From an uncultured virus (IMG/VR IMGVR_UViG_3300036770_003021) (Duplodnaviria > Heunggongvirae > Uroviricota > Caudoviricetes): a stretch of DNA of 20,000 nt. The translations under genes and the position numbers were made by a program. The notes beneath the pieces were generated by a model, which was not told where the DNA came from, did no database searches, and saw nothing but the letters and a program-made list of their open reading frames with translations. Each line of letters begins with the position of its first letter. The stretch's first letter is position 1. Location: IMG/VR virus record IMGVR_UViG_3300036770_003021, positions 114,040 through 134,039 of that record; one strand, given 5' to 3'. Below, piece by piece: positions 1 to 17,635 of this stretch.

Positions 1-236
1 ATCAAAAATTCAACCCTATCCTATCTGGATCAGATTCGTCCGGGTCAGACATACAGGGGTGTATCGTGTCCCTCACGCTGTTGGAGTCAATCCCCAACAC
101 GCACATTGTTCTATCCCAGACACCTTGGCGGTTTTATGGGCATATTTAACCCACAGATTATTAGCCGAACACAGCCGTTGGTTATTGTTTCGGACCTAGC
201 CAAGTTCAAACCTCTACCGTTGTCTGGTATATAAAA

Positions 237-312
237 TGGTCGGAATGACAGGACTCGCACCTGCAACCTCCTAGCTCCAAACCAGGCCGTCTACTATTGA
301 CATTACATTCCG
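237..312 (-). tRNA. tRNA-Pro(TGG)
   Basis: Cloverleaf, anticodon arm CCTGG-TT-TGG-AG-CTAGG, encoded CCA; T-loop TGCGAGT. Confidence 0.9.
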
Positions 313-319
313 ATTAAAT

Positions 320-395
320 TGGCAGGGGATAAGGGAATCGAACCCCTACAGACGCGGGTCCAAAGCCCGCCGCGCTACCACTACGCAAATCCCCA
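320..395 (-). tRNA. tRNA-Gln(TTG)
   Basis: GCGGG-CT-TTG-GA-CCCGC, canonical TTCGATT T-loop, CCA. Confidence 0.95.
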
Positions 396-408
396 GTTGA
401 ACTTCATA

Positions 409-1092
409 TTAATTTATAATAATACCATAAGATTTACACCATTTTCTCACAGCATTATCTGACACACCATATTTTTTACCTAAACTCACCATTGTATTTT
501 CTTTTACTTCTTTTTCCAAAATTTCTTTGGTTGGTCTATCTGTTTTTCTTTTTTCATATCTTGGTTGATGTCTCCAATCAGGATTTATTTCTGATGGTTT
601 AATGCGGTGTTTATTTAGAGAACGACCCGCAAATGTAGATGTTTGACTATGACAATTCGGACATAAAAATTCTAAATTTTCAATTCTATTATCATCTGAT
701 ATTCCGTTTTTATGTTCTAATTGAAGAGTTAATTTTTCATTTTCCCAAATGCCATTATTTTTACATTTTGCACATTCATATTTTATTATATTAAATTTAA
801 TTAAACGTTTTTTTAAATCTGTTCTATTACAACGAGAATTTGTTGTCAATTTTTTTAATAAATCTTCTTTTGTAACTTGTCTTGTCCAATTACTTGATTG
901 TGTCCTAGAAAGGAAATGACTGGTATCAATTTGTAATTCAACAATTCTTTTTTTACAAGTTTTAAAATTTCCACCTTTATTTTCCATACCAAAGTGTTTT
1001 AGTAACTCAGACATAGTTTTGCTATTTTTTACTAAAGTTGTAAATTTTTCGTTTGAAACTTTCCAGATAATACTTGTTCTATTTTTACTCAT
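409..1092 (-). CDS. HNH homing endonuclease with C-terminal HTH
   Basis: CAKC...LQLEHKNG...DNRIENLEFLCPNCHSQT HNH motif; C-terminal LGKKYGVSDNAVRKW helix-turn-helix; inserted in tRNA array. Confidence 0.9.
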   Translation of the reverse strand: MSKNRTSIIWKVSNEKFTTLVKNSKTMSELLKHFGMENKGGNFKTCKKRIVELQIDTSHFLSRTQSSNWTRQVTKEDLLKKLTTNSRCNRTDLKKRLIKFNIIKYECAKCKNNGIWENEKLTLQLEHKNGISDDNRIENLEFLCPNCHSQTSTFAGRSLNKHRIKPSEINPDWRHQPRYEKRKTDRPTKEILEKEVKENTMVSLGKKYGVSDNAVRKWCKSYGIIIN

Positions 1093-1152
1093 ACATACAT
1101 AAATATGTAAGAACAGAATGAAAGTTCAATTTTTAATATTAAATTTATTAAA

Positions 1153-1227
1153 TGGCAGGGGATACCGGTTACGCTCCGATTCTCTCAGATTCAAAGTCTG
1201 ATTTGCTACTATTACAATCAATCCCCG
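1153..1227 (-). tRNA. tRNA-Gln(TTG)
   Basis: TCAGA-CT-TTG-AA-TCTGA, CCA; T-loop AGCGTAA. Confidence 0.88.
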
Positions 1228-1238
1228 GTTACTAAAAA

Positions 1239-1313
1239 TGGTGCAGTAGGAGAGAATTGAACTCTCATTTCAAGTTTGGAAGACTCACGTAATAGCCATT
1301 ATACCACTACTGC
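1239..1313 (-). tRNA. tRNA-Gly(TCC)
   Basis: GAGT-CT-TCC-AA-ACTT, TTCAATT T-loop, CCA. Confidence 0.93.
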
Positions 1314-1398
1314 ATTTTAATAAATTATTAGATGTTCAGTCATCAAATATTTGATGTGTACTATGAACCACGGACAGGTAATCTAATTTCTCATAGCG

Positions 1399-1489
1399 CG
1401 GAGGCGAAGGGTGCTGCCCCCTCAGTGGCTTTTTAAACCACGGCAATTTAGCAAATTGCTGTAGAAACCTAACTATCTACGTCACCTCC
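1399..1489 (-). tRNA. tRNA-Ser(GCT)
   Basis: GCAAT-TT-GCT-AA-ATTGC, long variable arm, G discriminator; no encoded CCA; T-loop GGCAGCA. Confidence 0.82.
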
Positions 1490-1573
1490 ATAAAATCTTT
1501 GACAATCTCCGATTTCTTCACGGGACGATATTATCAGTCCTCGGCTCCATTGTCAAGTGGAGTTGTATTAAAA

Positions 1574-1665
1574 TGGCGGTTGATGTCCGTACTGCCCGGA
1601 CCTTCGTCTTTCAACGAACCTAGTTTTCAAGACTAGTGCAGCCAGCTTATATCTGCCTATCAACC
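1574..1665 (-). tRNA. tRNA-Ser(TGA)
   Basis: CTAGT-CT-TGA-AA-ACTAG, long variable arm, GCCA end; T-loop GGCAGTA. Confidence 0.88.
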
Positions 1666-1673
1666 GTATAAAT

Positions 1674-1758
1674 TGGTGGGCATAGAGGGACTTGAACCTC
1701 CACGGATTTCTCCCCGAGCTTCTAAGACTCGTGCGTCTGCCAATTTCGCCATATGCCC
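1674..1758 (-). tRNA. tRNA-Leu(TAG)
   Basis: CGAGT-CT-TAG-AA-GCTCG, variable arm, canonical T-loop, ACCA. Confidence 0.95.
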
Positions 1759-1764
1759 ATAAAA

Positions 1765-1838
1765 TGGTCGGCCACGCCAGAATTGAACTGGCTCCACATG
1801 CTCCCAAAGCACGGATGCTACCGTAACACCTGTGACCG
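1765..1838 (-). tRNA. tRNA-Pro(TGG)
   Basis: CGTGC-TT-TGG-GA-GCATG, canonical T-loop, ACCA. Confidence 0.93.
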
Positions 1839-1860
1839 TTTGATTTGTTAATCAAAAAAA

Positions 1861-1935
1861 TGGTAGGCGGTAAAGGATTTGAACCTCTGGCCTTGACCGT
1901 GTAAAGGTCCTGCTCTTCCACTGAGCTAACCGCCC
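1861..1935 (-). tRNA. tRNA-Val(TAC)
   Basis: GACC-TT-TAC-AC-GGTC, canonical D and T loops, ACCA. Confidence 0.95.
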
Positions 1936-2083
1936 ATTTAAAATTTGTTGGATTGTGTACCTATCGTTGGTAGCCCTTATTTCTAAGGACCGGCGTCTCC
2001 TATTCCTTGGCTCGCCTCTACGGTTTTGATCTCAGTTCAAACTTTCTAAAGACTGTTGATGTTGTTTACATCGTTATATTTCT

Positions 2084-2111
2084 AATTTACCACACCTTCT
2101 CATTTTGTCAA
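2084..2111 (-). promoter_or_regulatory. sigma70-type promoter at head of tRNA array 1
   Basis: TTGACA-16 nt (ending TGTGG)-TAAATT; same design at 7188-7215 and 11192-11219. Confidence 0.7.
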
Positions 2112-2123
2112 CACCTAAAAATC

Positions 2124-2158
2124 AAAAACCCGTCATTCTTTTTTTGAAGTGACGGGTT
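2124..2158 (-). terminator. Intrinsic terminator of attenuator 1
   Basis: AACCCGTCA...TGACGGGTT stem followed by T run; 5' arm overlaps antiterminator. Confidence 0.85.
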
Positions 2159-2187
2159 GGTTCTTTTAGGAGCAAACAACCTCGCCT

Positions 2188-2241
2188 TCAACTTCCGGAT
2201 GGGAGTTGACTGGCTTGACTAGGTTGTGAAATTAAATTCAT
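2188..2241 (-). CDS. Leader peptide 1, MNLISQPSQASQLPSGS (17 aa)
   Basis: ATG..TGA directly upstream of antiterminator/terminator; Ser/Gln/Pro/Gly/Leu codons match the downstream tRNAs. Confidence 0.75.
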   Translation of the reverse strand: MNLISQPSQASQLPSGS

Positions 2242-2288
2242 ATTGTTACTAATATATAGTATTCAAAATACAAAATCAACAAAATTTT

Positions 2289-3197
2289 TTAAAAAGTTTT
2301 AAATCCACTCAAATCGAACTCGTTAACTTTATATCCAACACTTAGTGATGATATTGTATTATTTATTTCGGTTATATAACTAGGAATACTTGTTCCAACA
2401 CCAGCAGAACTTCCTAATGTCATATACCAACCACCTATCAATACTATTTCATTATTAATAATAGTAGAGACAATATTGCCGCTGTCACCACCAATTAAAG
2501 CTTCAAAATATTGCGCTCTATTAGGATCTTTTGATAGATTTATTACTGTGTTATTTGATCCATATGAACCATTAATACCTCCAAATTCTCCAATCAAAGC
2601 TTTTCTTTCTTGATCAGAATATAGTATTGGGAAATTAATTTTGTTCACATCAAAATATTTGGTGTAATTAGCTGGCAATACACTGTATACTTTTAATGAA
2701 TCATCAACTTCTTTATCCAACTCACCAATTAAAATGTCTGTATTACCCACTCGTTTTGTTTTGACAACATTGTAAGTAAGTGTAACGTTATTATTATTTA
2801 CAAAGAAAATAAGAAATGGAGTTGATGAATAAGGCACGTGATTTGCAAATAATACATGTTTCTTAGTTATAAGTGTTCCGCCGCCAACTCCTCCTAAAGG
2901 TACAATACAAGAAGAATATCCCGTCAAATTAATACTCTTTGCCCAACAATTATTGTTTCTAGGCCAATTATAAGGATTAACATATGGAGTTAAAATATTC
3001 TTGTCTTTCTTTTCTTTAATTAAATTGTCAAAGTTAGAATTGATATGTGACAACAAATCCAACTTTACTACATTTGTTGTTCCAGTTATTCCTGATGATG
3101 ATGCTTGTGATGATAAAGCATCTTTCTTTGCCTGATCAATTATTTTTTGTAACAAAATTGCGTGTTCCGCTAATAAACTTTCCATTATAGTAGGCAT
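2289..3197 (-). CDS. Trypsin-like serine protease
   Basis: GGTLIT..HVLFANH (His), TDILIG (Asp), GGDSG (Ser) catalytic-triad motifs. Confidence 0.8.
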   Translation of the reverse strand: MPTIMESLLAEHAILLQKIIDQAKKDALSSQASSSGITGTTNVVKLDLLSHINSNFDNLIKEKKDKNILTPYVNPYNWPRNNNCWAKSINLTGYSSCIVPLGGVGGGTLITKKHVLFANHVPYSSTPFLIFFVNNNNVTLTYNVVKTKRVGNTDILIGELDKEVDDSLKVYSVLPANYTKYFDVNKINFPILYSDQERKALIGEFGGINGSYGSNNTVINLSKDPNRAQYFEALIGGDSGNIVSTIINNEIVLIGGWYMTLGSSAGVGTSIPSYITEINNTISSLSVGYKVNEFDLSGFKTF

Positions 3198-3235
3198 AAA
3201 ATAAATCTTTCTTTATTTATAAATATGCGCAAAAT

Positions 3236-3263
3236 AAAAAACCCGCTTATTTCTAAGCGGGTT
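3236..3263 (-). terminator. Intrinsic terminator after beta-barrel gene
   Basis: AACCCGCTTA-loop-TAAGCGGGTT then T run. Confidence 0.8.
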
Positions 3264-3288
3264 CACATTTGTAATTCTACAATTACTA

Positions 3289-3987
3289 TTAGAAGGTCAA
3301 TTTCAAACCACCAGAATATACAATGTCACCACTAAATTCACGGGTTGCCCAATTGTACTTGGTAGTATTAAAGTTGTTGTCATACCATCCAGCACTTACA
3401 AATGGAGTAAATACACCAAATGAAGTTTCAAACGGACGAGTCAATGCCAACTTTGCATTTACAGCGGTATAATCTTCTACCTTACCATACTCAACTCCAG
3501 GAGTTACAACAAATCCAAATGGAAGTTTTTGAGCACGTTCTGCACCAACAAATACACCACTTTGCTTCAAGTCTACATCATAATATCCACGAACATATGG
3601 TGTAACAATCTTGTTTGGTAGTGCCAACTTAACACCAAATTCAGTGCTGTTGGGAATACCAAAGTTACCAGCTTGGTGACGAGTTACAGTAGTATCCAAT
3701 CGTGCGGAAAATACATCCTTCCACACATTTACTTCTTTTCCAGCACCCAAAGTCCAATGAGACTGATCTAGGTCGCCATTGGCCAAAAGAGTACCACCCA
3801 AATATACATCCGCATACTTTAAACTCTTTACAGCACCTACACCCACAAATGGCGTGCCTTCAGAACGAGCTACACCGTTAACGATGTACTGGTTGTTATA
3901 ACCAGCCTCTACTGAGATGTTAGAATTATCTCCAGCAGTAACTGCTAGAGCGGTCAACAATGACACTAATACTAATACTTTCTTCAT
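3289..3987 (-). CDS. Outer-membrane beta-barrel protein (TorF/putative porin-like)
   Basis: Sec signal peptide, alternating amphipathic strands, C-terminal GLKLTF BamA-type signature. Confidence 0.75.
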   Translation of the reverse strand: MKKVLVLVSLLTALAVTAGDNSNISVEAGYNNQYIVNGVARSEGTPFVGVGAVKSLKYADVYLGGTLLANGDLDQSHWTLGAGKEVNVWKDVFSARLDTTVTRHQAGNFGIPNSTEFGVKLALPNKIVTPYVRGYYDVDLKQSGVFVGAERAQKLPFGFVVTPGVEYGKVEDYTAVNAKLALTRPFETSFGVFTPFVSAGWYDNNFNTTKYNWATREFSGDIVYSGGLKLTF

Positions 3988-4125
3988 ATTTTTAACTATC
4001 CTTTTTGTTTGTTTTGTTATTTACACCACACTAATTCAGATTACAAAAAAATAACCATCTTTAATGCGTTTTGGGACCGTCCCAAATATTGTTGTATATA
4101 AATAGTTTTATATTTTTATAATAAA

Positions 4126-4449
4126 TTATTTATTTACCGCTGACTTTTTGAGTTTTTTATACAAAGCTTTGTCTTTCTCAGGCAAATAAACATACGACGC
4201 TTTTTGTGACTTTTTATTTTCACCCAAAACACTAAGCGTATCTTCACTTACCTCCAACACTTTACCAATAGCATTTTTAATAAACCTAAAACTATCAGTA
4301 CCAGATATTTCTATACAAATGCCGTAATTTAAACTTTTATATTGTACATCAGTAGCTCCATAAAAAGAACACAAAATGTCTTTAATTTTAGCCTTCTTGT
4401 CTTCACTAAAGACCAGATTAGCCATATCAATTTTACTTAATTCATTCAT
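4126..4449 (-). CDS. Hypothetical protein
   Basis: 107-aa ORF, TTGACA promoter-like element upstream. Confidence 0.7.
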   Translation of the reverse strand: MNELSKIDMANLVFSEDKKAKIKDILCSFYGATDVQYKSLNYGICIEISGTDSFRFIKNAIGKVLEVSEDTLSVLGENKKSQKASYVYLPEKDKALYKKLKKSAVNK

Positions 4450-4550
4450 ACTATACTTTTATTATACTTGTTAATGTCACATTGTCAATAAAAAATAAAA
4501 CGATTAATTTTTACATTAATCGTTGTACTTTATATAAATTTATTTAATTT

Positions 4551-4964
4551 TTACTTTGATTTTTTCATCAACTGCAACGCCTTTTTTAACTTTGGGTCTT
4601 GTTGAGCTTTTGATTGTAACCAAGCATTGTAATTGCTTTTTTCACTACGAGCGTCTTCACTGTCTCTATATAGTTTAGCATATTTCTTTACAATGTCTCT
4701 AAATGGATCACCACTTTCTTTAAGTCTGGCAATTTTATCTTTCAACATCTGTTTGTATTTCTCAATAGAACCATAATCTTTTGCTCTACTTGGATCAGGA
4801 TTTTTTAACAAATTTTCCAAGTCTTTGATGTCTTTAGCTTTATCAGTTTCAGATAAAGTAGCAGTCAATTTATCACTCTCTACTTCAGCTGCATTGTCAA
4901 AATCTTCAACTAAAATTTCCTTGGTCAAACTTTTGATTAACTTTTTTAAATCGTTCTTGGTCAT
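4551..4964 (-). CDS. Hypothetical helical protein
   Basis: 137-aa ORF with TATTTAT motif just upstream of ATG. Confidence 0.75.
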   Translation of the reverse strand: MTKNDLKKLIKSLTKEILVEDFDNAAEVESDKLTATLSETDKAKDIKDLENLLKNPDPSRAKDYGSIEKYKQMLKDKIARLKESGDPFRDIVKKYAKLYRDSEDARSEKSNYNAWLQSKAQQDPKLKKALQLMKKSK

Positions 4965-4999
4965 ATGTTATAAATATAAAAATTGTAAAATAGGTACAC

Positions 5000-5170
5000 T
5001 TATTTTTGTTTTATGCTTTCACTCCAACCAACTCTGTGTTTGGTCATCCAATCTACCAACGCTTGTTCAAATCCTATATCGTTTCCAAGTTTTTCACTCT
5101 CTATCCATTTATGTTTTTCAATTTCTTTTTTCAATTCCAAAAACTTTTGATAGAGATTACTTTTTTCCAT
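5000..5170 (-). CDS. Small DUF4032-like protein (56 aa; missed by ORF track)
   Basis: MEKSNLYQKFLELKKEIEKHKWIESEKLGNDIGFEQALVDWMTKHRVGWSESIKQK; HKWIESEKxGxDIGF motif recalled from small verrucomicrobial proteins; TATTTAT upstream. Confidence 0.75.
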   Translation of the reverse strand: MEKSNLYQKFLELKKEIEKHKWIESEKLGNDIGFEQALVDWMTKHRVGWSESIKQK

Positions 5171-5232
5171 ACCCAAATAAATAGAAAATAAAATGGAGTA
5201 TTGTGTAATATACGAATTAATTTTAAAATTTT

Positions 5233-5323
5233 TGGAGCACGATCAAGGTTACGCTCCTTGCATATGTATTTTCATACAATGATGTTTTGCAGACATCTCA
5301 GTTCTCTAGCTCTGTCATCGTGC
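5233..5323 (-). tRNA. tRNA-Cys(GCA) with long variable arm
   Basis: GATGT-CT-GCA-AA-ACATC, U discriminator + CCA; T-loop AGCGTAA. Confidence 0.8.
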
Positions 5324-5334
5324 TTTATATAAAA

Positions 5335-5409
5335 TGGTTGTCACGGTAGGACTTGCACCCACAATCTTCTGGGTCAGAACCAGCTGCGATTCTATTACGC
5401 TACGTGACA
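5335..5409 (-). tRNA. tRNA-Gln(CTG)
   Basis: CTGG-TT-CTG-AC-CCAG, CCA; T-loop TGCAAGT. Confidence 0.82.
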
Positions 5410-5411
5410 AT

Positions 5412-5486
5412 TGGAGCCTGCAATTGGTTTTGACCCAATATCTATCAATTTACGAAATTGATGCTTTACTATTAAGCTATACAGGC
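5412..5486 (-). tRNA. tRNA-Thr(CGT)
   Basis: TCAAT-TT-CGT-AA-ATTGA, GCC acceptor start, CCA; T-loop GTCAAAA. Confidence 0.85.
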
Positions 5487-5492
5487 ATTAAA

Positions 5493-6296
5493 TTATTCGT
5501 CCGCATTTGAACCAAAAATACGCTTCCAAAAACCCACTTTTTTAGGTTTTTCCTCTTGTTTTGATTCATCTACTTGATTAATTTCTTTTGATAAATTATT
5601 TGAGTGCTGATTTGAAATTTTCATCAAAACTTCCGCACCTTTTGGCCACTCACCCAATTTGTTTTTAAATTCATAACCACTTTTTTTCATATTTTGTCTC
5701 AAATTTTGAGCCAAAAGTGCATTTTCTCTCTTCAATTCCTCTATAATTTTTTCATACTCAACAATCTTGTTCTTCAAGAAATCTCTTTCTTTTGTAAGCT
5801 CTTCAATCTTAGCCACAAGCTCATTTTGATCTTTATCAGTCTTTGCAACTTTAAGCTCATCACTCAAATCTACGATCTCTTTAGTCATTTTTACAAGCGT
5901 ATTACGCAATGATTTTAAATCAGATTCAAGCGCAGATTTTTCTTGGGTCAAATCTTTAATCTTTATGTCTTTTTCATCAGATGATAATTTTAACTTCTCA
6001 GTAATATTCTGTAACTGAGTTAAATTAGTATGCAATATACTCAATTTATTGTCATAACTCTTCAATAATGAAGTCATTTCCACATTTTTTTGATTTAAAT
6101 TGGTAATCAATAAACTTTGATTTACAACAATCTCAGACTGATTAGCAACTTTTTTAGACAAAACTTTATTGTCTTTATTTAATGAACTAAATAATGCGTA
6201 TAATCCAAAAATTACCAATACAATTACAGCAATTATTGAATATAATACCTTTTTATTAGTAAACGAAAATGTTTGGGGAGAGTTTGTAGATTCCAT
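5493..6296 (-). CDS. Membrane-anchored coiled-coil protein
   Basis: N-terminal TM helix, long heptad-rich region, C-terminal GFWKRIFG amphipathic motif. Confidence 0.8.
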   Translation of the reverse strand: MESTNSPQTFSFTNKKVLYSIIAVIVLVIFGLYALFSSLNKDNKVLSKKVANQSEIVVNQSLLITNLNQKNVEMTSLLKSYDNKLSILHTNLTQLQNITEKLKLSSDEKDIKIKDLTQEKSALESDLKSLRNTLVKMTKEIVDLSDELKVAKTDKDQNELVAKIEELTKERDFLKNKIVEYEKIIEELKRENALLAQNLRQNMKKSGYEFKNKLGEWPKGAEVLMKISNQHSNNLSKEINQVDESKQEEKPKKVGFWKRIFGSNADE

Positions 6297-6349
6297 AAAT
6301 TTATTTTATTATATATATAATACCCTCACACTTAAATATATTTTTAAAA

Positions 6350-6423
6350 TGGAGCCTCCAGCAGGTACCGCCCCTGCGTTTCATCATTACCAATGATGTG
6401 TAATACTTTTATACTATGAAGGC
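6350..6423 (-). tRNA. tRNA-Thr(GGT)
   Basis: CATCA-TT-GGT-AA-TGATG, CCA; T-loop GGCGGTA. Confidence 0.88.
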
Positions 6424-6428
6424 AAAAA

Positions 6429-6506
6429 TGGCACACCCGGCAGGATTCGAACCTGCAATCTTCTCGTTAGAACCGAGTCGCTTTAGTCCAGTTTAGCTAC
6501 GAGTGC
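6429..6506 (-). tRNA. tRNA-Arg(TCT)
   Basis: CTCG-GT-TCT-AA-CGAG, canonical T-loop, GCCA. Confidence 0.92.
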
Positions 6507-6648
6507 GTTAAAATTACCCACCACTGTTCGAACAATGGTGGCACCAACACGATAGTTTGCTAATAGGCTTATTCGGTTTGTGTTCGTCGTCAACACAAAT
6601 CCCGCTATCTCTTTTACCACACGACCTGCTTCATAGAGTTGGTGAAAA

Positions 6649-6722
6649 TGGTTGACCGTGCCGGTTACGCTCCGGCGTAGGACGATTATCAGTCGTCTAT
6701 TCTGCTATTGAATTAACGGTCA
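6649..6722 (-). tRNA. tRNA-Ile(GAT)
   Basis: GACGA-CT-GAT-AA-TCGTC, ACCA; T-loop AGCGTAA. Confidence 0.88.
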
Positions 6723-6729
6723 ATTGAAA

Positions 6730-6805
6730 TGGCGAGGTATATGGGTGCTGCCCCCACTATCTTTTCCGTGACAGGGAAATGAGTCTGCTGTTCCTCTTAT
6801 ACCCC
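6730..6805 (-). tRNA. tRNA-Asp(GTC)
   Basis: TTTCC-CT-GTC-AC-GGAAA, GCCA; T-loop GGCAGCA. Confidence 0.88.
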
Positions 6806-6896
6806 AAAAAATTGGTGCTGTGCTCTCCACGCCGTCTCTGTGTTTTACCGATTGTACCGGTCGGCAGTCACTTATGGGGCCAGTTACCCATTAAAT

Positions 6897-6975
6897 TGGT
6901 GGAGCCAGTGGGTAATGCTCCCACACGAATCGTCCGGTTAAAAGCCGGCTGCCCGTCTATTGTGGCTTTGACTCC
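6897..6975 (-). tRNA. tRNA-Lys(TTT)
   Basis: CCGG-CT-TTT-AA-CCGG, ACCA; T-loop AGCATTA. Confidence 0.85.
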
Positions 6976-7069
6976 ATAAATTGGTGGGTCTTTCCCTCTG
7001 TCACTCTTTAATCCCTAGGATTTCAACCCCGGCAAATATCGGTTACGAGTTACCGCTAGACTTATAAAA

Positions 7070-7145
7070 TGGTGGAATCATCGGGATTTGAACCCGAATC
7101 ACGATATTAAGAGTATCGTAGTCTAGCCAATTGACTTATGATTCC
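7070..7145 (-). tRNA. tRNA-Lys(CTT)
   Basis: CGATA-CT-CTT-AA-TATCG, canonical T-loop, ACCA. Confidence 0.94.
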
Positions 7146-7187
7146 ATTATTAAAAATTTCTTCTTACATTGTCAACGAACTATAATC

Positions 7188-7215
7188 ATCTTACCACACT
7201 TTATAACTTCGTCAA
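7188..7215 (-). promoter_or_regulatory. Internal sigma70-type promoter in tRNA array 2
   Basis: TTGACG-16 nt (ending TGTGG)-TAAGAT. Confidence 0.65.
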
Positions 7216-7233
7216 CAGCTTTTTAAAAAAACT

Positions 7234-7983
7234 TTAAACGTTACTTTGTTTCTTTGGATATGGTTGAATTGACTTAATCAATCCACCCAATATTCTTTTA
7301 CCATCACTAGAATTTTGTCCGGATAAAATATAAATGTACATATGTTTTCCAGTAGCAGTTCTTATTTCAAATGGACTATTAGGATTGGTTCTTGCATCAT
7401 TTGCTGCATCTTTACCAGTTTCAAAACCATACTTCTTTATTTGTGGTAATCTATACACCCACTTGTTTTCTTTTTTATCCCACAAACGTTTTGTATCTTT
7501 ACTCTTGCCTAAATAAATTGCATTTGTTGCTTGATATATAGATCCAGTATGTCCCTGTCCACTATCAGCCCGTGTAATAACAACCTTTAATTCGGGATAA
7601 TCCTGTTTAATCTTTTTATTACCCAAACCAATTACATACGACGCCAAGTTGCTTAACTCAGGTATTTGTTTTGCCTCAGGTTTCAAATATAATCTCAATA
7701 ACTCAAATACTTCATTCTTTTGCAATAAACTGTTGCCCTCTGCATCTACAGCTATTTCTTCATAATCTTGTGGCTTGGTGGTTTGTCCATAAACAATCAC
7801 TCCTACCATATCCACATTACCATCTGTCTTCTTGTACATCACACCATAATTAGCAGCCACCGCCGTAGGATATGTCTTTAAATAATGCTGCTTAATAAAA
7901 TTCAATACTTCAGATTTACTCTTGGGTTCCAAATATACACTATCTTTCAAACCCTCCAATATTAATTCTTTCAATTTAATCAT
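7234..7983 (-). CDS. Mom-family (GNAT-like) DNA modification protein
   Basis: FELLRLYL...VITRADSGQGHTGSIYQATNAIYLG Mom-type motif; start moved to MIKLKE (7983) because the longer ORF overlaps tRNA-Phe and TATTTAT precedes this ATG. Confidence 0.75.
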   Translation of the reverse strand: MIKLKELILEGLKDSVYLEPKSKSEVLNFIKQHYLKTYPTAVAANYGVMYKKTDGNVDMVGVIVYGQTTKPQDYEEIAVDAEGNSLLQKNEVFELLRLYLKPEAKQIPELSNLASYVIGLGNKKIKQDYPELKVVITRADSGQGHTGSIYQATNAIYLGKSKDTKRLWDKKENKWVYRLPQIKKYGFETGKDAANDARTNPNSPFEIRTATGKHMYIYILSGQNSSDGKRILGGLIKSIQPYPKKQSNV

Positions 7984-8016
7984 ATGATATAAATATCTGC
8001 ATGCATCGTCAAAAAA

Positions 8017-8092
8017 TGGTCCCAATTGTTGGTTCCGCCCCAACCTCTCAAGTTCTTCAGACTTGCGCTTTCACTAGGTTAGCTTAACTGGG
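8017..8092 (-). tRNA. tRNA-Phe(GAA)
   Basis: CAAGT-CT-GAA-GA-ACTTG, ACCA; T-loop GGCGGAA. Confidence 0.87.
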
Positions 8093-8104
8093 ATTATAAA
8101 TCTA

Positions 8105-8185
8105 TTGACAAGTCAAAGGAATCGAACCTTTTCGGAACAGAGTCGCCCGCTCCTTTACCACGCCCTGCGCACTAGCACCTGTCAA
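8105..8185 (-). ncRNA. tRNA-like RNA with perfect T-arm, no anticodon arm
   Basis: TTGACAG/CTTGTCAA closing stem; AAAGG-TTCGATT-CCTTT T-arm. Confidence 0.5.
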
Positions 8186-8192
8186 AAACTAA

Positions 8193-8294
8193 ATTGTGTG
8201 GTTGGAATCGAACCAACGGCCCGTGCTTATTCACACTTTTACGGTGTCATTTACCATCATAGTGAGCACTGATCTACCCCTGAACTACACACAA
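8193..8294 (-). tRNA. tRNA-like gene with 37-nt expanded anticodon loop (isotype undetermined)
   Basis: Acceptor TTGTGTG/CACACAA, D-arm, GTGCT/AGCAC stem, GTTGG-TTCGATT-CCAAC; no CCA. Confidence 0.6.
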
Positions 8295-8301
8295 TCTAAA
8301 A

Positions 8302-8688
8302 TTAAATTTTGTTTTTTGTTTTTTGCCATTTTTCTACACAATATTCGTGGTATTCTTTTTTGCAAATTTCACATCTACATTTATGATTTATATAACCAGA
8401 TTTACCGTGTTTCCAAGATTCTCTATTAATTAAATAATCTTTGTTATCTAAACTTTTCTTCAAATGACACGGATAACATAATAATTGACATTTGTGTATT
8501 TCTCTTACAAAGACTTCTATATTTGTTGTAAACATAGAAGATATTTCATTCACTTTCGTTCTTGGATCTATATGGTCAAATTGTAAATCTTTTTCAGAAT
8601 TACATTTACAACATTTACCTCCAAGCATTTCAAGTCCAAGTTGTTTTCTTTTTTTTCTATAGTTTTGTATATATTCTTTTGTAGGCAT
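8302..8688 (-). CDS. HNH endonuclease
   Basis: CCKC...LQFDHIDP...KCQLLCYPCH; C-terminal HG..GY...CRCEIC motif. Confidence 0.88.
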   Translation of the reverse strand: MPTKEYIQNYRKKRKQLGLEMLGGKCCKCNSEKDLQFDHIDPRTKVNEISSMFTTNIEVFVREIHKCQLLCYPCHLKKSLDNKDYLINRESWKHGKSGYINHKCRCEICKKEYHEYCVEKWQKTKNKI

Positions 8689-8768
8689 AAATTTCTCCTA
8701 CAAATAAATATCATTGAATTAAACTAAAGTTACAAAAAGTTACAATGTTGTAATTGTTGTTAATAAAA

Positions 8769-8854
8769 TGGTGGGGTATGTAGGTAATGCTCCTACCCAG
8801 CCCGAAGGCAACGGTTTTACAGACCGTTCTGCGTCTTTATCAGTATAATACCCC
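8769..8854 (-). tRNA. tRNA-Tyr(GTA)
   Basis: ACGGT-CT-GTA-AA-ACCGT, GCC-TTCG-GGC variable arm, ACCA; T-loop AGCATTA. Confidence 0.9.
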
Positions 8855-8992
8855 AAAAAATATATAATGTATGATGAACAATGAAATTATTTAAATTTCT
8901 TAAGGCACTTTATGTTCATACTATTGCAATTTGATCAACTGCCTAACCCTCAATCAGCATACTCCATACATCATATAAAACTATTGAAAGAG

Positions 8993-9115
8993 CTCCAGAG
9001 GAGGGTTTCGAACCCCCAACCCTGCGGTTAACTTTGGCCTTGTGAGATTTGCACTCTCTATTAAATAATACTTTATGGCCCACAGCCGCATGCTCTACCA
9101 TTGAGCTACTCTGGA
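8993..9115 (-). tRNA. tRNA-Asn(GTT) interrupted by 51-nt anticodon-loop insertion
   Basis: TCCAGAGTAGCTCAATGGTAGAGCA-TGCGG-CT-[51 nt]-GTT-AA-CCGCA...TTCGAAA; no encoded CCA. Confidence 0.8.
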
Positions 9116-9123
9116 ATTGAAAA

Positions 9124-9201
9124 TGGCTCCAGCCCTTGGCTCCGCCCCAAGCTCGACACGGTTTAACAGACCGCCGGTTACACTAAGTTTCCTTGACTGG
9201 A
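9124..9201 (-). tRNA. tRNA-Asn(GTT)
   Basis: GCGGT-CT-GTT-AA-ACCGT, GCCA; T-loop GGCGGAG. Confidence 0.87.
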
Positions 9202-9392
9202 ATTAAAAATTAAATTTGAAAGTGTGGATTCTCTTACCACCACTTAGGGCGGACTGCCCAGTTCTGACTTCAACAGACTCTCTTTCAAAAAATGTTTACT
9301 GGATTTCACTATGCTTGTTCCACCTACTAACTATAACCTCGTCAGATTATAACCTTCAATGTCTATCAGTGTCAATACATTACTTACTACTT

Positions 9393-9469
9393 CAACTATT
9401 GATTCAGATTCGAACTGAATGACTACTGCATACAGCGCAGTTGCTTTACCAATTAAGCTACGTTCGTTG
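9393..9469 (-). pseudogene. Degenerate tRNA (intact D, anticodon and T arms; broken acceptor stem)
   Basis: TAGCTTAATTGGTAAAGC, ACTGC-GCTGTAT-GCAGT, TTCAG-TTCGAAT-CTGAA; acceptor strands do not pair, no CCA. Confidence 0.6.
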
Positions 9470-9492
9470 CCTTCACCTAATGTATTTAAAAA

Positions 9493-10164
9493 TTATTTAT
9501 ATACTCTACCTTTAACATATCCGTTTGTCAAGTATGTTTGTAGTTGTTCTTTTTTAATTTTAAGATTTTTATTTGTTTCAGAATGATATACCCAACAAGT
9601 TCCATATTGGGAATTTTTTGCACCGGATTGTGCTACTTTTAGTTTTTCTCCGATTTTCTTTTTTGTATCTTCTTTATGTTTTTTACCGGTCCAATGAAAA
9701 GCATTTTGTTTCCATTTTTCCTTTAAAGATGTTGATACTTTCTGTTTCCATTCTTCAAATAATCCTTTTTCAATTAAAAATTCTTTTATCTTATCTCCTG
9801 TCAACAAATTCTTTTTCCTAATCTCAATATTTTTATGATGTATATTTTTTCCAGATTCGTTTATATAAGAATAACCGCCATAACCACCTTCCATTATATT
9901 GTAAGTATTATTCGATTCAATAAATAATTGGTTTACAATTTCTCTTTCTTTGGAAAACATTTCTTCAGCGGTATCAAATATAAATAAAATTTCTTTAATA
10001 AAATTTTCTTCACCATATTTTTGTATTGCTCTTTTTAGAAGTTTTCCAGAACCCATATAATTGTCCTGCAAATTTTTTGTTTTATGCATTCCAATGTAAA
10101 TTTTTTGGTTCAATTTATTTGTAATCTTATATATCGTGTATTTATATTGAGCGTTCGTGTCCAT
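9493..10164 (-). CDS. GIY-YIG homing endonuclease (Seg-like)
   Basis: TIYKITNKLNQKIYIGMH...YMGSG; NUMOD3-like GKKHKEDTKKKIG; start reassigned to MDTNAQ (TATTTAT upstream, avoids tRNA-Trp overlap). Confidence 0.9.
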   Translation of the reverse strand: MDTNAQYKYTIYKITNKLNQKIYIGMHKTKNLQDNYMGSGKLLKRAIQKYGEENFIKEILFIFDTAEEMFSKEREIVNQLFIESNNTYNIMEGGYGGYSYINESGKNIHHKNIEIRKKNLLTGDKIKEFLIEKGLFEEWKQKVSTSLKEKWKQNAFHWTGKKHKEDTKKKIGEKLKVAQSGAKNSQYGTCWVYHSETNKNLKIKKEQLQTYLTNGYVKGRVYK

Positions 10165-10213
10165 AATAATAAATATAGACACGAACTCAAATAATATTAT
10201 TTTTTTTGAAATG

Positions 10214-10288
10214 CATCCACCGTAAGAATCGAACTTACCCACGGGCTTTTGGAGAGCCTGTCGCCTAATCCTTGGAACATTGGCGGAT
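10214..10288 (-). tRNA. tRNA-Trp(CCA)
   Basis: GGCT-CT-CCA-AA-AGCC, canonical T-loop; 3' CCA not encoded. Confidence 0.87.
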
Positions 10289-10298
10289 ATACTATAAA

Positions 10299-10375
10299 TG
10301 GCAGTCGCATTGGGATTTGAACCCTATTCTCCATCTTGAGAGGATGGTGTCCTATCACACATAGACGATGCGACC
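10299..10375 (-). tRNA. tRNA-Glu(CTC)
   Basis: CCATC-CT-CTC-AA-GATGG, GCCA. Confidence 0.92.
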
Positions 10376-10480
10376 GTTAAATATTGTGACGAGATTACCC
10401 CAGTAGGAATTACCCGGCATGCAAGGGCTCCTTCAATCTTTTGGGTTTAAGTCTCTTTGTTGCCCTCGTCACTTTTAAAA

Positions 10481-10558
10481 TGGTAGCCCCACGGGGAATT
10501 GAACCCACGATTTGTAGATTGAAAGTCTACCGTCCTATACCCATTAGACGATGAGGCC
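10481..10558 (-). tRNA. tRNA-Glu(TTC)
   Basis: GTAGA-CT-TTC-AA-TCTAC, ACCA. Confidence 0.93.
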
Positions 10559-10569
10559 ATTATATAAAT

Positions 10570-10647
10570 TGGTGCTTCAGTGAGGATTCGAACCCCAAAC
10601 TCAACGTTCGTAGCGTTGCGTGATAAATCCATTTTCACCACCGAAGC
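10570..10647 (-). tRNA. tRNA-Arg(ACG)
   Basis: CAACG-CT-ACG-AA-CGTTG, canonical T-loop, ACCA. Confidence 0.94.
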
Positions 10648-10653
10648 ATAAAT

Positions 10654-10729
10654 TGGTTACCCCACTTGGATTTTCACCAAGGTTGATGTCTCAGAGAACA
10701 CATCCGTCCTAAACCTAGACGATAGGGTA
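10654..10729 (-). tRNA. tRNA with Glu-like D-arm and 10-nt anticodon loop (isotype uncertain)
   Basis: GATGT-GTTCTCTGAG-ACATC; ATCGTCTA..GGACG D-arm; ACCA; T-loop TGAAAAT. Confidence 0.65.
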
Positions 10730-10737
10730 ATTAAAAT

Positions 10738-10813
10738 TGGGGTGAATAAGGAGATTTGCACTCCCTTTGATTGCTTCACAGGCAATGCTCTTACTACATA
10801 GAGGATATTCACC
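10738..10813 (-). tRNA. tRNA-His(GTG)
   Basis: ATTGC-CT-GTG-AA-GCAAT, G-1:C73, CCA; T-loop TGCAAAT. Confidence 0.9.
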
Positions 10814-10825
10814 ATTACTATAAGC

Positions 10826-10907
10826 TGGAGCCGTTGACAGGATTCGAACCTGCGATGATTTTCCAGTTTACAAAACTGGTGTTTTCAACCACTCAACTCA
10901 CAACGGC
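10826..10907 (-). tRNA. tRNA-Thr(TGT)
   Basis: CCAGT-TT-TGT-AA-ACTGG, canonical T-loop, CCA. Confidence 0.92.
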
Positions 10908-11101
10908 GTTAAATTTTCTTTACTTCAACATTCACAGTAATCACCTCAGTAATACTGTCATCGCCCTATGGGTTCTGTATTCCAGCATAACACCCACGGA
11001 CCAATCAATTGATTTTCCCAGACTTTACCCTATCGTCAATTTCTTGACTCACTGGAGGAGGTTCAACAGATGGAGTTTCAAACCTTCCTTACTCTTTATT
11101 C

Positions 11102-12330: not shown

Positions 12331-13011
12331 ATGCACAACACAGTACTAATGATACTATCAGTCAGAAATTCCAAAAGCTTCGAACAATCAGTCAATAAAT
12401 TGCAATGCGAAAAAATTTGGTTCAAAGGCTACAGAGAACACGAACTAGCACCAATAATAAATGACTTTATAAAAAATTCAAACTTCGAAAACTACTTCAT
12501 CACCCCAGACGATTTGATCATCAAACCATATCAGTTCGATCAATTGAAAAACGCACTACACTACCACGATATAGTTTCAGGCTGGGGAGTTATACGCCAA
12601 AATTGCACTCACACCACCATCACCAAACCACACAACTTCTTACAACAAAACATATTCAAACACCAATTCACAACCAATTATTTGAAAAACCAACAATACA
12701 ACTTTTCCTACAAAACTCACGAAATTAACTCGCTTCCAAATCAAATAGAAACCGCATTCACAGGATGGTTTTACACAGGTATGAAAAAACACATATGGAC
12801 ACAATATCCATACGAATGCCTAAACCCCCCATTCGCAAGCTCAGACCTGATGTTCAGTAGACGAGTTTTATTCGATAACAAATATAAACAAATTTGCATC
12901 AAAAGCGCAAACGTCATACACCTCTCCAACTCGAACACAATGTCAACAGACACATCATTCTTCGATATGTCCACATGCTTCTCAAATAAATCAATACTCA
13001 AAACCTTCTAA
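12331..13011 (+). CDS. Putative GT-A fold glycosyltransferase-like protein
   Basis: YFITPDDLII acidic motif after beta strand, SSDLMFS and VIHL motifs typical of GT2-like proteins. Confidence 0.5.
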   Translation: MHNTVLMILSVRNSKSFEQSVNKLQCEKIWFKGYREHELAPIINDFIKNSNFENYFITPDDLIIKPYQFDQLKNALHYHDIVSGWGVIRQNCTHTTITKPHNFLQQNIFKHQFTTNYLKNQQYNFSYKTHEINSLPNQIETAFTGWFYTGMKKHIWTQYPYECLNPPFASSDLMFSRRVLFDNKYKQICIKSANVIHLSNSNTMSTDTSFFDMSTCFSNKSILKTF

Positions 13012-13015
13012 CCAC

Positions 13016-13807
13016 TCAACAAACATACACCTTGTTGATGCCCTCACCACTAAACACATACTTCAACTTGTTGCCACTATCATTGTTAACACTGCTCCAA
13101 TAATGCACCTTGGACTCCATAGATATATTATGCGCATATATTAAATTTATACCATCATATATATCTAACCTCACATCTATAACACTACCACCATCATTTA
13201 CATACTCCACAAACTTATTTTGAATTTTATTGATATGTAATCTATCACTAACATTATTGATATCATCAACATAACACTGCATATCATTGTTGTAATATCC
13301 ACCACGATTTATATAATATCCATACTGATAACAATTGCTTTTAAATAACAAATTCAAATTGCTATACCTGCTCAACATAACATCATTGGTCAAATCACTT
13401 TGCTTGTGTATCTCATACACATTGCCATAATACTCTCCCTGCTCCAATTGATAAGGCACCGCAACCAAACACAATTGTTTGTTACGCTCTATAACATCCA
13501 TCAACACCAATGACTCTTGTACACTCAAATGCTCCAATATATCCCCCATTATTATAACATCATAATTGCAAATATCATAATTCATAACATTGCCTATTAT
13601 CACATTGTCATACAATTCATTCAACTTGTACTCCACCACATAAGGCAACCATACCTCCATACAATCCATTTTATACCCAAGATCCCGCAATAACTTACTA
13701 TAAGTACCAACACCAGCTCCAATATCCAATATCTTGCTACCGATATTCACATACTTTTCAAAATATACTCTAACATCACTCTTTAATATGTTATGACTAA
13801 TAGGCAT
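13016..13807 (-). CDS. Class I SAM-dependent methyltransferase
   Basis: KILDIGAGVGTY, YDVIIMGDILEHL; start likely MPISHN (13807). Confidence 0.85.
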   Translation of the reverse strand: MPISHNILKSDVRVYFEKYVNIGSKILDIGAGVGTYSKLLRDLGYKMDCMEVWLPYVVEYKLNELYDNVIIGNVMNYDICNYDVIIMGDILEHLSVQESLVLMDVIERNKQLCLVAVPYQLEQGEYYGNVYEIHKQSDLTNDVMLSRYSNLNLLFKSNCYQYGYYINRGGYYNNDMQCYVDDINNVSDRLHINKIQNKFVEYVNDGGSVIDVRLDIYDGINLIYAHNISMESKVHYWSSVNNDSGNKLKYVFSGEGINKVYVC

Positions 13808-17115: not shown

Positions 17116-17469
17116 TTAAGCGGTCACAGTCTCAGTCACAACCTCGGCAGTCACAGTGGCGACAGCCTTGGACTTAGCCAGATTCGCCAGATTGGCCTTG
17201 TAGACCTTGGAGTTGATGAAGATATTGGCCGGCTTGCCCTTGCGACCGGTCTGGACATTACGAGGAAGCTTGGTATACTTGCCATTGGACAGACCCCGAA
17301 GAACAGCGGCTCGGATGGTCACGGCCTTGACATCGGGATTGAGGGTTTGAAGATCCTTGAGAGTGAAGCTCTTGTTGAGGATCAGCTTGAGGTTCTTGGC
17401 AGGACGACCAGCCTTAGAGGTCTTGGTGGAGGTGGAGTTCATATTCGAATCGTTGGAGACGTTAGTCAT
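17116..17469 (-). CDS. Basic putative DNA-binding protein (winged-helix-like, GRP motifs)
   Basis: AGRPAK, FTLKDL, TGRKGKPANIF; start reassigned to MTNVS since promoter TTGATT-16-TAGATT lies at 17480-17507. Confidence 0.6.
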   Translation of the reverse strand: MTNVSNDSNMNSTSTKTSKAGRPAKNLKLILNKSFTLKDLQTLNPDVKAVTIRAAVLRGLSNGKYTKLPRNVQTGRKGKPANIFINSKVYKANLANLAKSKAVATVTAEVVTETVTA

Positions 17470-17635
17470 TACAGAGATAAATCTACCAGAGTTTGTGGCG
17501 GAATCAAGCGTTTTCTGCAACTTTCTTCAAAAAACTTTTGAGTAGGATTGATACCTAAAATCTATATTATTATAAATAAAAAACCAGATAAAGTGTTACC
17601 TCTATCTGGCTTAACCTATTACTAACCCCGACTAA

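Follow-up and report, generated by a model that had tools for sequence, protein, structure and literature searches.

The last part of a 134-kb contig of an uncultured virus, a 20,000-nucleotide stretch referred to here as the window (IMG/VR record IMGVR_UViG_3300036770_003021, positions 114,040 to 134,039), carries a long array of transfer RNA (tRNA) genes, every one of them on the minus strand. In about half of this phage's tRNAs, the near-universal G18/U55 corner of the elbow is replaced by A18/G55. An earlier note, made from the letters of the window, had counted 16 of 29 tRNAs without the TTC T-loop and had listed their loops. Both the count (13 TTC loops and 16 others) and the listed variants were reproduced exactly when the loops were read from a covariance-model alignment. 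The model used for this (R2) was derived from 20 window tRNAs, after a first model (R1) from three, and was run with filters off; it took the place of MAFFT alignments of the tRNAs, in which the 5' end was wrong. The variants depart from the conserved tertiary nucleotides G18, U54, U55 and A58 and retain the G19-C56 pair, a purine at position 57 (R57) and the closing pair G53-C61, the last of these in every variant T-arm listed. The cluster had been placed at 237..10813; it does lie there, but the array runs on to 10907, the end of a tRNA-Thr(TGT) gene.

Three of the variant T-loops combine G55 with T54-A58. They belong to tRNA-Pro(TGG) at 237..312 (TGCGAGT, D-loop AATAGTA with A18, CCA encoded, and an identical copy in the related phage contig G004), tRNA-Gln(CTG) at 5335..5409 (TGCAAGT, AATAGAA) and tRNA-His(GTG) at 10738..10813 (TGCAAAT, ATGTAGTA, with G-1 encoded and C73). 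A54/T58 is found in tRNA-Gln(TTG) at 1153..1226 (AGCGTAA, AATAGTA), tRNA-Cys(GCA) at 5233..5323 (AGCGTAA, D-loop GCTAGAGA, discriminator U73, 20-base variable arm), tRNA-Ile(GAT) at 6649..6722 (AGCGTAA, AATAGCA), tRNA-Lys(TTT) at 6897..6975 (AGCATTA, AATAGAC) and tRNA-Tyr(GTA) at 8769..8854 (AGCATTA, a D-loop with AAAG, long variable arm). G54/G58 occurs in tRNA-Ser(GCT) at 1396..1489 (GGCAGCA, D-loop ATAGTTAGGTTT, CCA not encoded) and tRNA-Ser(TGA) at 1574..1665 (GGCAGTA, D-loop ATATAAGCTGG), both with long variable arms and D-loops in which positions 18 and 19 are ambiguous, and in tRNA-Thr(GGT) at 6350..6423 (GGCGGTA, AAAAGTA, identical in G004), tRNA-Asp(GTC) at 6730..6805 (GGCAGCA, AACAGCAG, discriminator G73), tRNA-Phe(GAA) at 8017..8092 (GGCGGAA, ACCTAGTGA) and tRNA-Asn(GTT) at 9124..9201 (GGCGGAG, a D-loop with TAGTG, discriminator G73). 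The two remaining loops are those of tRNA-Thr(CGT) at 5412..5486, an intermediate form in which GTCAAAA (G54 with U55 kept) is joined to A18 (AATAGTA) and which is the only mixed case, and of a tRNA-like RNA with an enlarged anticodon loop at 10654..10729 (TGAAAAT, with G55 and A56).

All 15 G55 tRNAs of the window have R57, and 14 also retain C56; the 54/58 nucleotides are A-T or G-G in 11 of the 15 (five A/T, six G/G). The D-loops follow the rule that had been proposed for them. AG without GG was present in 12 of the 15 G55 tRNAs; the two Ser tRNAs have both dinucleotides and the TGAAAAT RNA has neither in the right place. GG was kept by 14 of the 16 U55 tRNAs in the contig, the exceptions being tRNA-Glu(CTC), which has neither, and tRNA-Thr(CGT), which has AG. 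Counting clear D-loops over the contig, 12 tRNAs were A18/G55, one A18/U55, none G18/G55 and 14 G18/U55 (Fisher p = 7.5e-7).

The contig encodes a tail sheath, baseplate and tail-fibre proteins, a T4-gp20-like portal, a major head protein, UvsX, DnaB, ribonucleotide reductase and PhoH; because of these tail, head, portal and replication genes it is assigned to a large myovirus, of which it is a part (CheckV completeness 48%). Near-identical DNA was present in 14 public runs, whose labels were subsurface, lake, freshwater, aquatic or other, and three of these runs may be the source. Megablast of positions 1-11000 and blastn of 6649-6975 gave no match among cultured phages, and relatives were therefore located by a portal protein search. 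The nearest cultured phages were Microcystis phage Mel-JY01 (56% portal identity) and the Flavobacterium phage immuto group (53%); the uncultured phage LR756508.1 (484 kb) reached 51%, and many IMG/VR relatives were closer (82-99%). The distant cultured relatives were little informative, with one hit in Mel-JY01 and four in immuto, all U55. When 25 related IMG/VR contigs were searched with R2, six contained tRNAs, and alignment of their clusters to the model yielded 126 hits, 120 of them full-length, and 91 unique tRNAs from this phage and five related contigs.

On this structural alignment, which includes the related phages, the association of 18 with 55 and of 54 with 58 persisted. A18/G55 was found in 30 of the 91 unique tRNAs, A18/U55 in one, G18/G55 in none and G18/U55 in 39, the other 21 having both dinucleotides or neither. 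In 7-base D-loops, where positions 18 and 19 are unambiguous, the corresponding numbers were 17, one, none and 20, plus one TT/G55 case. At 54/58, nucleotides other than T-A were present in 25 of the 37 G55 tRNAs (G-G in 15, A-T in 10) versus 3 of the 54 U55 tRNAs. The p-values across relatives were 6e-10 and 6e-19; as the sequences are mutually related, these suggest more independent events than there were, and the Fisher values are too strong as a result.

The 19-56 and 54/58 tertiary pairs covary within homologous backbones. In the relative G003, the Arg-TCT tRNA has the acceptor stem of its orthologues, with G19-C56 changed to U19-A56, and the Val-TAC tRNA has A19-U56. The Lys-TTT tRNA of the window and the Lys-CTT tRNA of G004 have a common D-arm, variable region and T-stem and carry A54/T58 and G54/G58, respectively. 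The Lys-TTT tRNA of G003 combines an ATCGTTA T-loop with GG in the D-loop; therefore 54/58 can change without 18/55.

Most of the variants escape standard gene finders. ARAGORN at default settings reported 16 genes in the window, comprising 12 of the 13 TTC tRNAs and 4 of the 16 others. Rfam at the gathering score (29 bits) and default filters gave 18, made up of 11 of the 13, 6 of the 16 and one extra, and permissive filters gave 22, including 8 of the 16 non-TTC tRNAs at 34-60 bits. A purpose-written cloverleaf scan, which ignored loop sequence and required an encoded CCA, recovered 25 of the 29 tRNAs on the minus strand and found nothing comparable on the plus strand. R2 recovered 28, missing only tRNA-Trp, which ARAGORN detects, and returned two extra tRNA-like hits (8190-8294 and 9403-9460). 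All 16 non-TTC tRNAs match R2 at E ≤ 0.01, with the qualification that R2 itself comes from 20 window tRNAs. Two further canonical tRNAs (Ala-TGC and Gly-GCC) lie just upstream of the window, and the contig holds 31 tRNAs in total, serving 19 amino acids; a CAT tRNA was not found in the contig. Because default finders miss most of the variants, such phages are systematically credited with too few tRNAs, and this affects arguments from codon usage as well. Six GC-rich intergenic stretches were also folded, with z-scores of +0.5 to -1.1 for 6980-7066, 6810-6893, 9205-9340, 125-236 and 8100-8200 and of -2.4 for 6515-6645, and there was no clear tRNA among them.

The variant genes are structurally intact. 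The G55 tRNAs form on average 20.3 of the 21 model pairs (37 unique sequences, minimum 17) versus 19.8 for the 54 U55 tRNAs, and CCA is encoded by 34 of the 37 and by 52 of the 54, respectively. In 15 of the 16 non-TTC tRNAs the anticodon loop has 7 bases, with U33 and with a purine at 37 (R37), the exception being the enlarged loop of 10654-10729. His carries G-1 and C73, Cys carries U73, Asp, Asn and Ser carry G73, and Phe, Ile, Lys, Tyr and Pro carry A73; the Tyr and Ser tRNAs have long variable arms. Synthetase identity rules come from work on Escherichia coli, and the variant ends appear to fit these bacterial rules. Outside the two loops, same-elbow orthologues are 90-100% identical between phages, and the variants among them 92-100% (1.00 for Pro-TGG, Thr-GGT and Lys-TTT, 0.99 for Cys and 0.92-0.97 for Ser-GCT). 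For 10 amino acids, including His, Ile, Cys, Tyr, Asp, Ser and Phe, the variant is the sole copy in the contig. The variants are very probably functional phage tRNAs with an alternative elbow design.

The low yield of the standard finders, the presence in the cluster of truly odd tRNA-like pieces (10654-10729, 8190-8294 and 9403-9460) and the duplication of three anticodons by a canonical copy would all suit a non-translational role, with the variants as decaying pseudogenes or as tRNA-like decoys soaking up host enzymes. Such a role is very improbable in view of the intact stems, U33/R37, encoded CCA and discriminator bases, the strong conservation between phages, the compensated tertiary changes and the 10 amino acids for which the contig has no other copy. 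The earlier note had described the elbows as functional and re-engineered rather than decaying. Function rather than decay is borne out by the near-perfect 18/55 association, the stems, the CCA, U33/R37, the conservation of orthologues and the compensation; "re-engineered" was an overstatement.

The history of the two elbow types points to exchange of genes. Where tRNAs with the same anticodon have different elbow types in different phages, the remaining body is only 40-62% identical. The T-loop of Ile-GAT is AGCGTAA here, GGCGGTA in G004 and TTCAAAT in G003; that of Asp-GTC is GGCAGCA here and TTCGAAT in both relatives; His has TGCAAAT, GGCAGCA or GGCAGTA across phages; and Glu-TTC, Trp, Phe and Lys-TTT likewise differ in elbow type. 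The tRNA genes of the window and of G004 stand in largely the same order, and this shared order together with the divergent bodies indicates that the slots are kept and the genes within them exchanged. No recent switch from U55 to G55 was found, as no pair with at least 70% body identity differs at position 55. Given this, and the distance between the bodies, U55 and G55 tRNAs represent old separate lineages exchanged as whole genes. Common descent of the variants was considered as well and rejected: in 82 cases the nearest neighbour shared the class 40 times, against an expectation of 41.5, and body identity was 0.406 between variants and 0.407 between variant and canonical tRNAs.

The A18/G55 pattern is specific to this phage clade. 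G55 makes up 15 of the 29 full-length hits in the window; the corresponding figures are 14 of 34 for G004 and 12 of 30 for G003. Our comparison set, the tRNA-rich regions of XacN1, RsoM2USA, PA5oct, LR756511.1 and LR756508.1, comprised 146 kb and 145 R2 hits; 136 of the 145 had TTC loops and only 2-3 had G55. An Asp tRNA of LR756508.1 has TGCAAAT with a TAG D-loop. R2 was derived from a set that is half variant and is therefore not biased against variants. A54 was also seen with U55 and GG kept, in RsoM2USA (L183:12619-12693 and 12994-13068) and LR756511.1 (L186:15315-15389 and 17440-17515), where the loops are ATCGTTA (A54/T58) and ATCGAAA (A54/A58, the combination of eukaryotic initiators). 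The 54/58 nucleotides therefore vary on their own elsewhere too.

The distribution bears on a neutral account, in which A18/G55 is an equally good elbow, ancient in some lineages and carried by gene exchange, and brings no benefit against nucleases or through modification. Such an account sits well with the equal folding of variant and canonical tRNAs, with the failure of the variants to form a family by descent, with the missing recent switch and with riboswitches, which show the G/A combination to be structurally sound (see below). Drift alone, however, does not predict a share of about 40-50% in three related phages versus about 2% in five others. Canonical and variant copies with the same anticodon are, moreover, maintained together: Pro-TGG, Gln-TTG and Asn-GTT each occur in the window as one canonical and one variant copy, as had been claimed and as the model alignment confirmed, and G004 has both kinds side by side for Lys-CTT and Pro. 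U54 and U55 are otherwise described as universally conserved in a review of T-loop modification. We consider the neutral account unlikely, although it has more to commend it than the non-translational one.

The T-loop is a recurrent RNA motif whose positions 1-5 correspond to tRNA nucleotides 54-58, with nucleotide 18 intercalating between positions 4 and 5. According to a preprint (bioRxiv 10.1101/2022.12.26.521914), the T-loops of riboswitches such as the FMN and cobalamin riboswitches have the consensus YGNRA (UGNRA in 88.7%), and their intercalator is almost exclusively an adenosine, which contacts the position-2 G at its sugar edge; the tRNA type is UUCRA, and an rRNA T-loop reads GGAAG. 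Like the riboswitch loops described there, 15 of the 16 non-TTC loops have G at position 2, and all 16 have a purine at position 4. Three window tRNAs match UGNRA exactly (TGCGA once and TGCAA twice), and the TGAAAAT loop of the tRNA-like RNA reads TGAAA. Unlike YGNRA, a pyrimidine at position 1 is combined with A at position 5 in only 4 of the 15 window G55 loops, the others being the five A/T and six G/G loops. A further difference from the riboswitch module is that the loop stands within a tRNA and that position 3 stays C, paired to G19. The G54/G58 class resembles the rRNA loop GGAAG, which is a partial precedent. For the A54/U58 class of T-loop we know of no precedent. Overall, the variant elbow appears to fit the riboswitch T-loop solution set in a tRNA, with C56-G19 retained and a predicted contact between A18 and G55.

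In common with canonical tRNA (RF00005), the variants have the cloverleaf, stems of 7, 4, 5 and 5 pairs, a 7-base T-loop, G53-C61, C56-G19 and purine 57, as well as U33/R37, the discriminator bases and encoded CCA. They differ from it in G55, A18 and the varied 54/58, and half of them fall below standard detection settings. Having G55, they can have no pseudouridine at 55, and those with A54 or G54 no 5-methyluridine at 54. Reviews of non-canonical tRNAs (PMC7609411) and of T-loop modifications give G18, U54 and U55 as conserved; the only exceptions named are tRNA-Pyl, mitochondrial tRNAs and, at position 54, the A of eukaryotic initiators. As portrayed there, tRNA-Pyl and many animal mitochondrial tRNAs are natural, active molecules that likewise depart from the conserved elbow nucleotides, having neither GG nor T-Psi-C (PMC7609411); in these, however, docking is lost or remodelled, the loops are small and other contacts are used, whereas the phage variants have normal loops, keep 19-56 and are changed in matched pairs. 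Full-text literature searches, with most subscription journals outside their scope, found no paper on A18/G55 tRNAs, and older reports are possible.

Cash, a Schlafen nuclease of prokaryotes that type III CRISPR signalling switches on, cuts tRNA mainly in the UUC of the T-loop, and changing either U54 or U55 alone is enough to stop it (PMC13462974, 2026). Whether phage tRNAs are targets was left open by its authors (PMC13462974). The UUC word is absent from all 16 non-TTC T-loops, which would place the difference from host tRNAs at a site that Cash must read. The idea that the elbows evade nucleases or bypass TrmA/TruB, already raised in the earlier note, has become more concrete because a nuclease blocked by such single changes has now been published.

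The explanation that we think best overall, and to which we give about an even chance, is that the variants are working tRNAs with a second elbow design whose benefit lies in the lack of the U54-U55-C56 word. The sequences show that the features which define the shape of the T-loop are in place (G53-C61, C56-G19, purine 57 and a 54/58 pair), with G at position 55 and A at position 18, the D-loop base predicted to slot in. Once G55 is in place, the 54/58 pair is free to be T-A, A-T or G-G, and the outer face of the elbow (19-56) is kept or changed with compensation. RNase P and the ribosome stack on this outer face. Such tRNAs would be processed, charged and used in translation, and without the U54-U55-C56 word they would not be substrates of TrmA or TruB or, above all, of T-loop-cutting defence nucleases such as the Schlafen-type Cash. 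The phage may thereby gain a partly nuclease-proof tRNA set beside the canonical one. For the component parts our confidence differs. Selection by readers of U54/U55 is plausible and is proposed tentatively, at somewhat less than an even chance. That the variants amount to a parallel "stealth" set maintained by this clade of large freshwater phages, with riboswitch-plan elbows that fit RNase P, synthetases and the ribosome and go unrecognised by Schlafen/Cash nucleases or by TrmA/TruB, is possible but rather doubtful. T5 tRNA-Lys reportedly acts against PARIS, and mycobacteriophage and T5 tRNAs are said to counter anticodon nucleases, in each case escaping through changes in the anticodon loop. 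These known counter-defence tRNAs involve the anticodon loop of single tRNAs, whereas here the elbow of about half a set is affected.

Possible signals of expression were found in the cluster. It is on the tRNA strand that the region has its strongest sigma-70-like sites, with scores of 12/12 at 9375-9346 and 4488-4461 and of 11/12 at 7175-7146, the last directly before tRNA-Lys(CTT). Contigs from four metatranscriptome libraries (four studies) fall on the tRNA blocks. One of them covers 6645-6986, with the Ile, Asp and Lys variants, and has a single difference; others cover 6701-6893, 6701-6900 and 1550-1759. The endonuclease genes and other open reading frames (ORFs) between the tRNA blocks had no cover from RNA libraries, an absence that is not evidential.

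Several observations, besides the inflated p-values, weigh against selection for a working, evasive elbow. No tRNA-directed enzymes were recognisable in the 134 kb (57 proteins with PHROGs, 42 + 19 with Pfam). No close orthologue pair differs at position 55, and the 18/55 association therefore rests on old lineages, with no recent switch to support it. As only about half of the set is variant, a nuclease cutting all UUC T-loops would still cripple translation, and as the seven amino acids Arg, Glu, Val, Leu, Gly, Ala and Trp are served by canonical copies only, protection would be partial. The total of promoter-like sites, 54, is not clearly above that of shuffles (42.7, standard deviation 5.8). 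The RNA-library contigs are consistent with transcription, but they may derive from contaminating DNA and come without ends or strand.

The cluster also contains free-standing endonuclease genes, all on the minus strand: an HNH gene at 409-1092, a GIY-YIG gene at 9493-10242 and an HNH-like zinc-ribbon ORF at 8302-8688. The GIY-YIG gene is absent from the relatives' alleles, and 9492 is joined to 10213 in contigs of four runs; a presence/absence polymorphism of this kind is typical of homing. In being a dense tRNA array with adjacent homing endonuclease genes and mobility, the cluster is like the L-arrays, long tRNA arrays that spread by horizontal transfer (PMC8421152); altered T-loops are not a subject of that paper, which has 0 occurrences of T-loop or G18. 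These genes raise the alternative of escape at the DNA level, with the conserved T-arm DNA word (GGTTCGAATCC) as the target of homing endonucleases or site-specific recombinases acting on tRNA genes, the variants as immune alleles and the D-loop change as repair. The very unlike bodies of same-anticodon tRNAs with different elbows, in an order largely as in G004, resemble cassette exchange, and phage T4 SegB is described in the same source as preferring to cut within tRNA genes (PMC8421152). The variants are, however, not visibly adjacent to the endonuclease genes, which are flanked by both types; these endonucleases have no known cleavage site; and the alternative leaves unexplained why G55 is constant and C56 and R57 are kept. 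We regard it as improbable.

The canonical genes are interspersed with the variants. They are tRNA-Gln(TTG) at 320..395 (TTCGATT, AGTGGTA), tRNA-Gly(TCC) at 1239..1313 (TTCAATT, AATGGCTA), tRNA-Leu(TAG) at 1674..1758 (TTCAAGT, AATTGGCAG), tRNA-Pro(TGG) at 1765..1838 (TTCAATT, TACGGTA), tRNA-Val(TAC) at 1861..1935 (TTCAAAT, AGTGGAA), tRNA-Arg(TCT) at 6429..6506 (TTCGAAT, AACTGGACTA) and tRNA-Lys(CTT) at 7070..7145 (TTCAAAT, AATTGGCTA). Further along lie tRNA-Asn(GTT) at 8992..9115, which has a canonical elbow (TTCGAAA, AATGGTA) and a 51-base insert in the anticodon loop, tRNA-Trp(CCA) at 10213..10288 with a canonical T-loop (TTCGATT, a D-loop with AAGG, CCA not encoded), tRNA-Glu(CTC) at 10299..10375 (TTCAAAT, D-loop ATGTGTGATA without GG), tRNA-Glu(TTC) at 10481..10558 (TTCAATT, AATGGGTATA), tRNA-Arg(ACG) at 10570..10647 (TTCGAAT, AAATGGATTTA) and tRNA-Thr(TGT) at 10826..10907 (TTCGAAT, AGTGGTTGA).

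Some members of the array are unusual in other respects. Bacterial long variable arms are normal for Leu, Ser and Tyr, not for Cys. The 20-base variable arm of tRNA-Cys(GCA) forms a hairpin; the G003 orthologue is 99% conserved, and the Cys tRNA of G004 is a short-arm tRNA instead. The RNA at 10654-10729 has perfect acceptor and T stems, but the two halves of its anticodon stem are separated by 10 bases (GTTCTCTGAG), and ARAGORN gives it a 4-base anticodon, CTCT. It has counterparts at L142:2681-2757 and L143:2420-2495, its body being 100% identical in three phages and the D-loop differing in G003. A frameshift-type tRNA is one possible reading of it, a non-translational RNA another. The insert of tRNA-Asn(GTT), at about 9032-9082, contains a T-arm-like hairpin (GAGAG TGCAAAT CTCAC); it is kept in G004 (91% identity; L143:3231-3356) and absent in G003. 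RNA-library contigs from two runs skip exactly this 51-base insert (9030 to 9082), which could reflect splicing or an insert-free allele of a relative; the same contig also skips 9129 to 9287.

The hit at 8190-8294 on the minus strand, outside the 29 tRNAs first counted, is an extra tRNA-like gene (41 bits with Rfam, 28 bits with R2); its elbow is canonical (TTCGATT, AGGGGTA), and its anticodon loop holds an insert of about 30 bases. That at 9403-9460, also on the minus strand, belongs to recurrent pieces that match model positions 8-63 only, the others being at L142:3136-3194 and 5473-5528 and at L143:2970-3028 and 4816-4869. These pieces comprise the D, anticodon and T arms without the acceptor stem, and some have G55 loops (TGCAATT, TGCGATC) with AAGAGAA D-loops. 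At 9205-9375 on the minus strand, some 130 ORF-free bases come after a perfect sigma-70-like site (TTGACA, 18 bases, TATAAT). They can fold into a cloverleaf shape whose terminal stem has 8 pairs (TTTGAAAG/CTTTCAAA), a fold no better than in shuffles (z = +0.5). In three RNA libraries, depth is greatest on this stretch by a wide margin (about 200-1000).

The contig also has two genes of the Mom family (DNA modification), one within the tRNA cluster at 7234-8043 on the minus strand and one at L025:8991-9764 on the plus strand (Pfam Mom, 1.4e-24; PHROG Mom-like, 8e-43). A search for a host with the ribonucleotide reductase in genome contigs returned the 3.1-kb contig JBIKJV010000438.1 (L192) of a Phycisphaerales metagenome-assembled genome, and two weak hits. 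Its ribonucleotide reductase large subunit is 85% identical to that of this phage, and the contig is probably a mis-binned phage fragment and no clue to the host.

In this phage, about half of the tRNA set, for 13 of the 19 amino acids served, dispenses with the textbook nucleotides G18, U54, U55 and A58 in a rule-governed way. What the elbow really requires would then come down to R57, a pair at 19-56, another at 54/58 and a match between 18 and 55. For the question of whether such nucleases attack phage tRNAs, the natural canonical and variant pairs for Pro-TGG, Gln-TTG and Asn-GTT are ready substrates. Elbows that evade TrmA and TruB while their outer face is kept are possible orthogonal tRNA scaffolds. 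If the variants do go unseen by nucleases and modification enzymes that read the T-loop, phage and host would be contending over the elbow of the tRNA as well as over its anticodon loop.

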